Shown piece after piece: positions 13,898 to 15,032 of a stretch of 64,000 nucleotides of DNA. Under the pieces are notes generated by a model, which saw nothing but the letters and a program-made list of their open reading frames with translations, was not told the origin of the DNA and ran no database searches. The number at the start of each line of letters is the position of its first letter. The first letter of the stretch is position 1. Where the stretch lies: the NCBI GenBank assembly GCA_902607475.1, contig CACLKH010000001.1:17094-81093 (forward strand). The letters are read 5' to 3'. Both the position numbers and the translations under genes were made by a program. Origin of the DNA: an uncultured Alphaproteobacteria bacterium. GTDB lineage: Bacteria; Pseudomonadota; Alphaproteobacteria; GCA-002720895.

Positions 13898-14251
13898 TTA
13901 AATTTTCATTTTTTTTCTAATTTTAGTTGCAGATATCTCTTCTATTTCTTTAGATAATTCAATTTGTTCTACTTTCCAACCTACACCTCTGCCATAACAA
14001 ACATTTGTAATATTTGGAACTTTAATAACTTCAAATTTTCCTTCATATTCTTTTAGATTGTTTTCAATATTTTTTTTAACAGTATTAAAATTAAATGGAT
14101 TAGAATCATCTGTGCCACTTGTATCTCTTATCATTATGATAACCTGCCCAGTTCTTTTAAGTATCTCCTTAAATAACGCTTTATGTCCATCATGAAAAGG
14201 TTGGTATCTTCCTAACATAGATGCAGTAGGTTTTTTCCAGTTAATAGTCAT
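13898..14251 (-). CDS. small nucleotidyltransferase of the HxGH / ISxTxxR (cytidylyltransferase/NMNAT-like) superfamily; substrate unknown
   Basis: 117 aa. Carries [10 protein letters not shown] and ISATKIR, the two signature motifs of the nucleotidylyltransferase alpha/beta-phosphodiesterase fold. Overlaps the upstream kinase-like gene by 11 nt. Confidence 0.7.
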   Translation of the reverse strand: [117 protein letters not shown]

Positions 14252-14747
14252 TATTAATCATCCTTTCTTTTATATAATTAGACCAATATTTAGCATTTTT
14301 TGTTGTAATTCTAAAATGAAATTTTTTTGGTTTTTGGAAAATTTTATTTGTATTTTCAAATCTACCTTTTTTTTCTGTATCCATCCAAATAATAATATCA
14401 GGCTTTAGTATTTTTCTTGTTTCATCTAAAGGACAAACAAAATCAGCAAGAGGACTAATTTTTTCTAAATAAATATAGTCAGAAAATCTTTTCATTCTAT
14501 CTGCTTGTCTTATTCGTCCTTCTTTAGAAAAGTCCCAGTCATTAAAATGTTTTCTTATTTCATCTGCATTAAGATGAATAATTGGTATTATTTTTTTTAA
14601 TTCAGTCGACAAACGTGTTTTTCCTGAACCCGGCAGGCCCATAACTAATATTTTTTTAGGTAAAAGGTTTATTTCTTTATTTTTGAATAAAACCCTTTTT
14701 TCAATTTTATTATTTATAAAGTTTTTTTCGTTTTCTAAAATTATCAT
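14241..14747 (-). CDS. adenylylsulfate (APS) kinase-like P-loop protein, divergent
   Basis: 168 aa. P-loop [34 protein letters not shown] and FVCP align with APS-kinase motifs LDGDNxRxGLxxDLGFSxxDRxENIRR and FISP, with substitutions. Confidence 0.65.
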   Translation of the reverse strand: [168 protein letters not shown]

Positions 14748-14759
14748 ATCTTTTCTTTA

Positions 14760-15032
14760 TTATTTTTTTTTGTTTTTATTAAATATATATTTTTTTAAAT
14801 TTTTCAATTTTTTAGATTTATTCATGCGTTTTCCCCACAAAATATAATTCCATCCTCTTTCATGAAAATAATATAAAAATGTTTTAGTTAATACTTCAAA
14901 CATAGCTATTGTTCCCGCCCAAGAAGGTTTTCCTGTTACAAACCATGCAATAATAAAAGTATCTAAACTTGCAAGCACCCTCCAAGTTATAGATTTTATT
15001 AATGATCTTTTTCTAGAAACTGTATATAACAT
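14760..15032 (-). CDS. DUF2061-like small membrane protein
   Basis: 90 aa with two hydrophobic helices. Motifs KSITWRV ... YYFHERGW match my recollection of DUF2061. Lys-rich tail. Confidence 0.6.
   Translation of the reverse strand: MLYTVSRKRSLIKSITWRVLASLDTFIIAWFVTGKPSWAGTIAMFEVLTKTFLYYFHERGWNYILWGKRMNKSKKLKNLKKYIFNKNKKK

Follow-up and report, generated by a model that had tools for sequence, protein, structure and literature searches.

The window analysed here is a 64,000-nt stretch from the genome of an uncultured alphaproteobacterium (contig CACLKH010000001.1), and on its minus strand it carries a block of sulfate assimilation genes that continues into three small genes (Table 1). In this block cysH overlaps cysI, gaps of 12 nt separate cysH from the DUF2061 gene and the DUF2061 gene from the kinase gene, and the kinase gene overlaps the nucleotidyltransferase (NTase) gene by 11 nt; the open reading frames are exactly as the first-pass annotation had described them, and the motifs it quoted, including ISATKIR, are all present in the sequence. 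The order CbiX-cobA-cysI-cysH-DUF2061-kinase-NTase is kept in eight related contigs with an NTase identity of 85-94%, which is why a chance arrangement can be rejected, and CbiX is retained in the block of all close relatives. In the closest relative of the window (NTase identity 94%), a sulfotransferase gene and an ASST-like gene closely precede CbiX within this block. CysH carries the sequences NLCCHIRK, GCQPCT and ECGIH, and from general knowledge of the family it is presumably of the Fe-S, APS-preferring type. Scans for promoters and terminators over positions 13600-20400 gave no useful signal at a GC content of 25%, with 56 promoter-like sites compared with 48 expected.

Table 1. Genes of the cysI-cysH block and the three small genes that follow it (positions in the window).
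Feature	Position	Strand	Description
NTase gene	13898..14251	-	117-aa HxGH nucleotidyltransferase; candidate non-canonical sulfate adenylyltransferase (ATP sulfurylase)
Kinase gene	14241..14747	-	168-aa predicted short-lid APS kinase (CysC-like); conserved 30-aa N-terminal helix
DUF2061 gene	14760..15032	-	90-aa two-helix protein, Lys-rich tail; candidate accessory partner
CysH, thioredoxin-dependent APS/PAPS reductase, CC...CxxC cysteines	15045..15764	-	PAPS_reduct 145 bits; NF002537 251.9 bits
CysI/Sir assimilatory sulfite reductase hemoprotein	15748..17448	-	NIR_SIR + NIR_SIR_ferr; NF010029 707.8 bits
CobA uroporphyrinogen-III C-methyltransferase (siroheme branch)	17426..18259	-	TP_methylase 156.6 bits; TIGR01469 275.9 bits
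CbiX-type sirohydrochlorin chelatase (siroheme)	18331..19071	-	CbiX 93.3 bits, two stretches

The 168-aa protein had been regarded as APS-kinase-like already in the first-pass annotation, and profile and fold comparisons agree with this. It scores 24.5 bits against Pfam APS_kinase (PF01583), above the cut-off of 21.1, and its relatives and the fusions described below reach 44-61 bits on the same profile. The top matches of a PDB profile search are APS kinases (2yvu with an E-value of 4.7e-9, then PAPSS1), and with the AF2 model (pLDDT 90.4) the top 50 Foldseek matches in the PDB are APS kinases in 50 of 50 cases, with a TMq of about 0.7; the CoaE family does not appear in the list of Pfam matches to the kinase, which extends to E 0.1. 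In the alignment to E. coli CysC, the P-loop, the second Asp of DGD, the Arg/Phe/Arg positions and the (F)xxP motif are kept, the APS-site residues being R65, F73 and R78/R80 together with FVCP. DGD is replaced by NAD, in which the second Asp is invariant and the first Asp has become Asn, and the lid is about 19 residues shorter than that of CysC, the full-length lid (KGLYKKARAG...FTG) being absent from this alignment and GRFE(D/N)TN standing at that position. High-GC members of the kinase family retain DLGFS..DR..RR. The N-terminal extension is conserved at the protein level, and the extra conserved N-terminal helix is a feature of the cysH-linked subgroup. The Pfam cut-off, the PDB profile, the predicted fold and the APS-site residues all identify the 168-aa protein as an APS kinase with a short lid.

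The 117-aa NTase matches Pfam CTP_transf_like with 29.6 bits (cut-off 21), and its score of 15.5 bits against the ATP sulfurylase family of the Sat type (PF01747) is below the cut-off of 24.3. Its best PDB profile matches are the archaeal NMN adenylyltransferase (NMNAT) 1f9a (E 4e-9) and NadM, and Foldseek returns NMNAT and PPAT structures, aligned over only about 77 residues. A specific link to Sat was found neither by Pfam, nor in the PDB profile matches up to E=10, nor in the top 50 Foldseek matches, both of the latter being free of ATP sulfurylases, and the Sat motifs QxRNPxHxxH and GRDHAG are not in the NTase, where YGRGVG is found instead of GRDHAG. The motif argument of the first-pass annotation, which used HxGH and ISxTxxR, is not specific, as both are marks of the whole superfamily and the protein sits with archaeal NMNAT and PPAT and not with Sat. 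By sequence profiles and model comparison, the NTase is not a Sat-family ATP sulfurylase, and archaeal NMNAT/NadM are its nearest relatives; also in this direction the distance is large, with 34-36 bits against the archaeal NMNAT/NadM families TIGR01527 and NF002243, far below cut-offs of 127-397. At an E-value limit of 1e-10 the NTase family has 942 representatives; it is found in no fewer than 577 species genomes, most of them from Pelagibacterales, and in cultured and uncultured phages. Public pipelines label its members PPAT or NMNAT.

The NMNAT catalytic motifs GRxQPxHxGH and SxTxxR are present and invariant in the NTase family, and the invariant residues across 81 sequences include R15, Q17, H20, H23, R42, N51, P52, P79, N80, G87, R88, S107 and R112, of which those in RD (42-43) and GRxVGY (87-92) are specific to the family when compared with NMNAT. 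The HMMER alignment to 1f9a jumps from query 77/target 72 to query 89/target 109, which leaves a gap of about 25 residues, and the missing segment (about residues 73-108 of MjNMNAT) is what we take to be the NMN-binding site. The loss of this segment together with the new invariants R42 and G87-R88 would be compatible with a small anionic acceptor; the AF2 model is poor at residues 80-100, where the acceptor site would lie.

The short kinase is encoded immediately upstream (gene -1) of the NTase in 77 of 87 loci. In 80 of 80 metagenome loci, which were fetched with a fusion query, the two form a single-frame kinase-NTase fusion, at GC contents from 26 to 68%; such fusions are also encoded by cultured phages, and about 45 of the top 150 representatives of the NTase family are full-length fusions. 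There is also a fusion in the opposite order, P0345, in which the NTase is joined to a fully canonical CysC (PF01583 211.9 bits, with LDGDN, FISP and KGLYKKARAG). Four contigs carry exactly this protein, and each of the 120 homologous clusters listed (294-333 aa) spans 92% or more of its length. Fusions in two independent architectures are what consecutive pathway steps typically produce. A fusion of the NTase with DHH/DHHA1 is also seen; several apparent fusions (to chorismate synthase, DHQS and UCH) were dismissed as chimeric or run-through gene predictions.

Among the immediate neighbours of the fusions (n=140), the top Pfam families are Sulfotransfer_1 (9), Sulfotransfer_3 (8), DUF2061 (5) and Sulfotransfer_2 (3), and the sulfotransferase-like genes detected locally, 21 among the 673 genes near fusions, lie at positions -3 to +1 in all 21 cases. 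The same sulfotransferase neighbour pattern is seen in the glycan islands of SAR11, and many SAR11-type ocean bacteria and phages carry the kinase-NTase pair as such.

The third small gene encodes a DUF2061 protein, as had been assigned from the first, with 78.3 bits against PF09834 (cut-off 23.1) over profile positions 1-52 of 52, and a DUF2061 gene directly adjoins the kinase-NTase fusion in 5 of 78 loci. In the nod locus of Mesorhizobium, DUF2061 is located between the sulfotransferase gene nodH and cysD-cysN (bioRxiv 10.1101/2022.04.26.489235). In this shared sulfotransferase-DUF2061 context CysDN(C) fills the slot that is filled elsewhere by the kinase-NTase pair. We infer that DUF2061 may be a small membrane-associated accessory of sulfate-activation modules. 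Most of the DUF2061 genes examined on plasmids have no sulfur context, and DUF2061 genes in other bacteria are iron-regulated; both observations count against the reading as a sulfate module.

All sulfate metabolism starts from ATP sulfurylase, of which to our knowledge only two types are recognised, Sat and CysDN. Neither had been seen in the block, and this extends to a larger set: tblastn with E. coli CysD and CysN gave no match in the window or in about 190 fetched loci, the Sat motifs RNPxHxxH and GRDHAG do not occur within the window, and no Sat motif occurs in the approximately 190 loci. Nor is another source of APS present in the phage modules made up of sulfotransferase, fusion and DUF2061. 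In SAR11 isolates, cysC, aprA and cysQ have been reported but no sat, cysH or cysI, and of the seven SAR11 genomes tabulated most lack cysD and cysN, while cysC and aprA have the same presence pattern in all seven (PMC5069961). A literature search found no account of the kinase-NTase pair or of a new ATP sulfurylase type.

What characterises a two-step PAPS synthase, namely an adenylyltransferase that is coupled to an APS kinase and a link to consumers of PAPS, is found for this pair, and the NTase is tied to APS by the adjacency of the kinase, by the fusions in two orders, and by the sulfotransferase and DUF2061 neighbours. It is thus probable (about 0.6, judged from sequence comparisons) that the overlapping NTase and kinase genes together specify a split PAPS synthase, the adenylyltransferase of which would be a new kind of ATP sulfurylase. 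The NTase would transfer AMP from ATP to sulfate, the presumed acceptor, to give APS and PPi, in which case ATP sulfurylase activity would be carried by a stripped-down NMNAT-like fold and not by Sat or CysDN, and the short-lid APS kinase would phosphorylate the 3'-OH of APS to give PAPS and thereby pull the unfavourable first step. APS (or PAPS) would then feed CysH and subsequently CysI, with CobA and CbiX supplying the siroheme, and PAPS could also be used by sulfotransferases. In SAR11, which has AprBA and no Sat, the NTase could run in reverse, from APS and PPi to ATP and sulfate. The earlier proposal of an unrecognised APS/PAPS-forming module has in this way obtained strong comparative support from the fusions in two orientations, one of them with a canonical CysC, from the sulfotransferase and DUF2061 neighbours, and from the position of DUF2061 between nodH and cysDN in Mesorhizobium; its motif argument is non-specific. 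Some points stand against the split PAPS synthase: the sequence and fold of the NTase, which place it with archaeal NMNAT/NadM and PPAT, the poor AF2 model at the presumed acceptor site, the APS-type appearance of CysH, due to which assimilation would not strictly depend on the kinase, the fusion of Salvovirus phages, which adjoins a NADAR/COG3236 gene and MazG and no sulfotransferase, and the SAR11 core locus, in which ECH and a CoA-binding protein are encoded next to the pair.

Like in bifunctional PAPS synthases and Sat-CysC fusions (human PAPSS1/2, the Aquifex and fungal ATP sulfurylases with an APS-kinase domain, CysNC/NodQ), an adenylyltransferase and an APS kinase are coupled here, whether side by side or joined in a single polypeptide, with either domain first and in association with sulfotransferases. 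In contrast to those, the transferase is a 115-125-aa NMNAT-like domain and neither a Sat domain, which has about 200 or more residues (PF01747) plus a PUA-like domain, nor CysD/CysN, and the kinase lid is shortened in most members. With archaeal NMNAT/NadM (1f9a, 1ej2, 2qjt) the NTase shares GRxQPxHxGH, NPF, SxTxxR and the N-terminal Rossmann-like core, but it lacks the 25 or so residues mentioned above, and its partners are APS kinases and sulfotransferases and not NAD genes. The kinase has the P-loop, the catalytic Asp, the APS-stacking Phe and Arg residues, the (F/I)xP motif and the fold in common with CysC (PF01583), and differs from it in NAD for DGD, in the lid and, in the cysH-linked subgroup, in the added N-terminal helix. 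The nodH-DUF2061-nodP(cysD)-nodQ(cysN/C) locus of Mesorhizobium likewise has DUF2061 between a sulfotransferase gene and sulfate activation, yet with canonical CysD/CysN(C) where the kinase-NTase pair is found here. HldE (RfaE) and NadR follow, from general knowledge, the same two-step logic of a kinase and a minimal nucleotidyltransferase of about 120-130 aa with a HIGH motif; the kinase of HldE is of the ribokinase type and that of NadR acts on nicotinamide riboside, whereas the kinase here is of the APS-kinase type and stands in a sulfation context.

A possible though unlikely alternative is that the kinase is a genuine APS kinase and the NTase has another role in the PAPS economy, such as regulation, the recycling of PAP/AMP nucleotides, or the adenylylation of another small phosphate compound, with APS coming from AprBA or from a host or unlinked Sat or CysDN. 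This would agree with the missing specific similarity of the NTase to Sat, with stand-alone kinase copies that adjoin sulfotransferases without an NTase gene, and with the DHH/DHHA1 fusion, which hints at the handling of pAp or PPi, and AprBA is a possible APS source in SAR11, where cysC and aprA show matching presence patterns in the seven genomes (PMC5069961). It fits poorly with the invariance of all catalytic nucleotidyl-transfer motifs, with two independent fusion architectures with APS kinases, and with the phage modules described above, which bring no other APS source.

Clearly improbable is a logic as in NadR, HldE or CoA synthesis, in which a nucleoside, sugar phosphate or cofactor, and not sulfate, would be the substrate of a P-loop kinase and a small adenylyl- or cytidylyltransferase (NR to NMN to NAD; heptose-P to ADP-heptose; phosphopantetheine to dephospho-CoA to CoA). 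The closest relatives and pipeline names of the NTase, the Salvovirus NADAR/COG3236 neighbour and, in SAR11, the adjacent genes for ECH and a CoA-binding protein speak for it, as do SIS (GmhA-like) genes that flank a few copies; the kinase, however, matches APS kinases specifically in its top-50 folds, in the lack of CoaE among the listed Pfam matches and in the DLGFS..DR..RR of high-GC members, the same NTase also occurs fused to a canonical CysC, and the neighbours are dominated by sulfotransferases and not by NAD, heptose or CoA genes. The sulfur context and the deletion of the NMN-binding segment make the NadR-like variant, which the first-pass annotation had itself offered as the alternative, less likely. 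The CoA variant (PPAT plus dephospho-CoA kinase), prompted by JGI names and the SAR11 neighbours, was set aside because CoaE is missing from the listed Pfam matches of the kinase, and because of the APS-kinase folds and the NTase-CysC fusion, and for a heptose pathway as with HldE, prompted by the SIS genes, these make up 2 of the 140 fusion neighbours, compared with about 20 sulfotransferase-family matches. That three unrelated genes without joint function merely came to lie beside cysH-cysI is hardly credible: SAR11-type genomes are tightly packed and the pair occurs in several different contexts, but pairing and fusion are conserved from 26% to 68% GC and in phages, sulfur-related neighbours recur, and the fusions largely refute it.

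Returning to the split PAPS synthase, a wider reading, for which the chances are about even, is that the NMNAT-derived NTase of 115-125 aa would be a third, so far unrecognised type of ATP sulfurylase and, with the kinase, the sulfate-activating enzyme, possibly ATP-yielding and APS-consuming, of SAR11-type bacteria, which are not known to have Sat or CysDN, that it would complete sulfate assimilation in the cysH-cysI lineage, and that phages would spread it in a mobile sulfation cassette together with sulfotransferases and DUF2061. If true, a third, minimal ATP sulfurylase type would alter the way in which genomes and metagenomes are scored for sulfate activation, and it may explain why SAR11 keeps cysC, cysQ and AprBA without a known ATP sulfurylase. 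Some relatives of SAR11 would then carry a complete assimilatory route, and phages would bring along their own PAPS supply for sulfotransferases.

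In the window, the three small ORFs behind cysI-cysH have the layout claimed in the first-pass annotation, with coordinates, minus strand, 11-nt overlap and 12-nt gaps all verified; the motifs quoted there were all found in the three proteins, and Pfam places these, as proposed, in CTP_transf_like (the transferase, or NTase), APS_kinase above the cut-off (the kinase) and DUF2061. The cobA and CbiX genes belong to the siroheme branch, which CysI needs. The order CbiX-cobA-cysI-cysH-DUF2061-kinase-NTase is preserved in eight related contigs (NTase identity 85-94%), and the MAGs closest to the window, whose GC content is about 26%, bear the labels MarineAlpha6, uncultured Alphaproteobacteria or Pelagibacteraceae. 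Also the claim that the block contains no Sat or CysDN holds, as no CysD/CysN homologue and no Sat motif was found in the window or any fetched locus.

Genes of the sulfur block in the window
Feature	Position	Strand	Remarks
transferase ORF, 117 aa	13898-14251	minus	Pfam CTP_transf_like 29.6 bits
kinase ORF, 168 aa	14241-14747	minus	Pfam APS_kinase 24.5 bits, cut-off 21.1; 11-nt overlap with transferase ORF
DUF2061 ORF, 90 aa	14760-15032	minus	Pfam DUF2061 78.3 bits; 12-nt gap to kinase ORF
cysH	15045-15764	minus	12-nt gap to DUF2061 ORF; overlap with cysI
cysI	15748-17448	minus	overlap with cysH
cobA	17426-18259	minus	siroheme branch, upstream of cysI
CbiX chelatase	18331-19071	minus	siroheme branch, upstream of cobA

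The gene of an RNase E/G homologue whose C-terminal tail is long and rich in Lys and Glu (12126-13892, plus strand) converges on the transferase gene with stop codons 5 nt apart, and no terminator-like structure was detected between the two. Upstream of the block, the minus strand (19497-22191) encodes a DUF5672 protein and, from a GTG start, a protein that combines TPR and GT41 (O-GlcNAc-transferase-like); this slot differs among relatives and holds Peptidase_S49 and NeuB/CTP_transf_3 genes (L002-L004), sulfotransferases (L020) or an ammonium transporter (L023). At 9385-9470 on the minus strand, prfB (RF2) apparently relies on the programmed +1 frameshift that is classical for this gene: a short ORF with its ATG at 9467 reads into AGGGGGGGTCTTTGAT, in which a Shine-Dalgarno-like run precedes CTT TGA, and the continuation is a 299-aa ORF (8375-9274) in the +1 frame.

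The 168-aa protein, described before as APS-kinase-like, is very probably a genuine APS kinase with a short lid, as judged from its sequence and model. In a PDB search with the family profile, APS kinases rank first (2yvu, E 4.7e-9, then the APS-kinase domain of PAPSS1, then the Penicillium and Arabidopsis enzymes), and the confident AF2 model (pLDDT 90.4) retrieved APS kinases in all 50 of the top-50 Foldseek matches. Aligned with E. coli CysC, the protein retains the P-loop, the second Asp of DGD (NAD here) and the Arg/Phe/Arg positions, has FxCP in place of FISP, and its lid is about 19 residues shorter; DLGFS..DR..RR is retained even in high-GC members.

The 117-aa protein belongs to the nucleotidyltransferase superfamily as suggested, but it is not an ATP sulfurylase of the Sat type: PF01747 scored 15.5 bits, under the cut-off, and ATP sulfurylases were absent from its PDB profile matches up to E=10 and from its top-50 fold matches. 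It is closest to archaeal NMNAT (1f9a, E 4e-9) and NadM, followed by PPAT. Only the N-terminal two thirds can be aligned with 1f9a, and about 25 residues of the latter are missing (between query 77-89 and 1f9a 72-109), a segment that we take from NMNAT-NAD complexes to bind the NMN moiety. Among 81 transferase sequences (GC 26-68%), the nucleotidyl-transfer residues R15, H20, H23, S107 and R112 are invariant, and so are the family-specific R42-D43, N51-P52, P79-N80 and G87-R88-x-V-G-Y. The AF2 model is weak precisely at residues 80-100, which is why the acceptor site cannot be read from it.

At least 577 species genomes carry the transferase, with nearly all of the best 80 being Pelagibacterales, and natural fusions with the kinase exist. 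A metagenome scan with fusions as query gave 80 loci from marine, freshwater and soil samples (GC 26-68%), all with both domains matched, 78 with a called fused ORF and many phage-borne in appearance; phrog_10255 of PHROG covers both domains, and cultured phages of Xylella, Xanthomonas, Stenotrophomonas and Clavibacter carry the fusion. An exhaustive search yielded 942 family representatives (E up to 1e-10), with about 45 full-length fusions among the top 150. The most telling result is P0345 (311 aa), in which the transferase domain comes first and is followed by a fully canonical CysC (PF01583 211.9 bits; LDGDN, FISP and KGLYKKARAG motifs), the reverse of the order in the kinase-NTase fusions. 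The identical protein is found on four contigs, and all 120 homologue clusters listed, mostly from marine samples, have 294-333 aa and match P0345 over 92% or more of its length. Two independent fusion architectures are a classical signature of consecutive steps, which suggests such a relation for transferase and APS kinase, and the two orders match both domain orders of Sat-based PAPS synthases. A different role for the transferase, next to a true APS kinase, is unlikely in the face of both architectures, yet it is the alternative that survives best. Two other fusions were seen: P0320 (395 aa, from the representative library) has a transmembrane DUF4118 domain before kinase-NTase, a membrane-anchored form that recalls the separate DUF2061 partner, and P0408 on phage-like contigs (L195 4051-5349; L196 2583-3881) joins the transferase to a DHH/DHHA1 phosphoesterase domain (DHH and GGGGHxHAAG motifs), for which weak Pfam and PDB matches leave NrnA-like pAp phosphatase and a pyrophosphatase-like domain as candidates.

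Gene neighbourhoods bear out the proposed sulfur context, as the short kinase lies directly upstream of the transferase in 77 of 87 loci and sulfotransferases are the top neighbour families of fusions. Among 140 immediate neighbours at 78 fusion loci, Pfam found Sulfotransfer_1 (9), Sulfotransfer_3 (8), DUF2061 (5), Fe-S_biosyn (4), Radical_SAM (4) and Sulfotransfer_2 (3), with only two sulfotransferases at two genes' distance; in a local search, all 21 sulfotransferase-like genes among 673 were at positions -3 to +1. In SAR11 glycan islands, fusions or extra kinase copies adjoin proteins of the Sulfotransfer_1 or Sulfotransfer_2 type or with sulfotransferase-like motifs. The closest relative of the window (L020, NTase identity 94%) encodes, directly upstream of CbiX in the same-strand block (L020 2459-5199), a PAPS-type Sulfotransfer_3 protein (70.5 bits) and an ASST-like arylsulfotransferase (Arylsulfotran_2, 48 bits), where the window has MAPEG, DUF5672 and TPR-GT41 proteins instead. 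Fe-S assembly genes recur beside the fusion in some phage-like contigs (L106-L185; Fe-S_biosyn/IscA-like in four immediate neighbours, NifU_N in three genes at two genes' distance), and recurrent unannotated families with a TGPQGSGNH-type loop (clusters 6 and 8) may be divergent sulfotransferases. Unlike in the metagenomic phage-like contigs, the fusion of Salvovirus phages (Xylella phage Bacata, L186 2114-6735) lacks a sulfotransferase neighbour and adjoins genes for a COG3236/NADAR-like protein, a MazG-like pyrophosphatase and a protein annotated as cysteine dioxygenase. The NMNAT-like ancestry of the transferase, these NADAR and MazG neighbours, and the genes for ECH and a CoA-binding protein at the SAR11 core locus favour a non-sulfur pair of the NadR-, HldE- or CoA-like kind, which is improbable next to the APS-kinase matches and the sulfotransferases. 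A coincidental three-gene arrangement can practically be dismissed, given its preservation in related contigs.

The first-pass annotation placed DUF2061 genes beside cysH/cysDN in other phyla, and this holds in part: on Mesorhizobium symbiosis plasmids DUF2061 lies between the sulfotransferase gene (NodH) and cysD-cysN, an order also reported in bioRxiv 10.1101/2022.04.26.489235, and this copy is 58% identical to the one adjoining a freshwater fusion. Where a sulfotransferase and DUF2061 come together, one and the same slot is thus filled by canonical CysDN(C) or by the kinase-NTase pair. DUF2061 is not sulfur-specific, as other plasmid copies stand in unrelated contexts and those of Caulobacter and Shewanella are members of gene sets that respond to iron or are regulated by Fur/SsoR.

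In the proposed mechanism, to which as a whole we give a probability of about 0.6, the transferase would form APS and PPi from ATP and sulfate, the kinase would, as is well supported, convert APS and ATP to PAPS, CysH would convert APS or PAPS to sulfite, and CysI with siroheme, by its family assignment, sulfite to sulfide. CysH carries CC...CxxC cysteines, presumably those of the Fe-S, APS-preferring type. PAPS would also be supplied to sulfotransferases, as the neighbourhoods suggest, with DUF2061 as a putative accessory. The pair is best classed as a putative PAPS synthase whose adenylyltransferase is neither Sat nor CysDN. No description of the kinase-NTase pair was found in the literature searched; in public annotation the transferase goes by the names PPAT, NMNAT or cytidyltransferase, and fusions appear as adenylylsulfate kinase or just as kinase.

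At the conserved SAR11 core locus (L052, L081, L007, L008) of many Pelagibacter genomes, a Rieske oxygenase precedes the pair, with GcvT-like genes further upstream; after the pair come ECH, a CoA-binding protein and a YeeE/YedE-type sulfur transporter split into Sulf_transp and DUF6691. At some loci a HalD/WelO5-like 2OG oxygenase comes immediately after the pair. According to PMC5069961, sat, cysH and cysI are missing from SAR11 isolates, and cysD and cysN from most of seven tabulated genomes, but cysC, cysQ and aprA are present, cysC and aprA with an identical pattern across the seven. The short kinase at the core locus is presumably this 'cysC'. The pair is abundant and has a central ecological position, and its proposed role lends itself to a direct test. 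SAR11 has APS-handling genes without a known ATP sulfurylase, and the transferase would fill this gap, in either direction.
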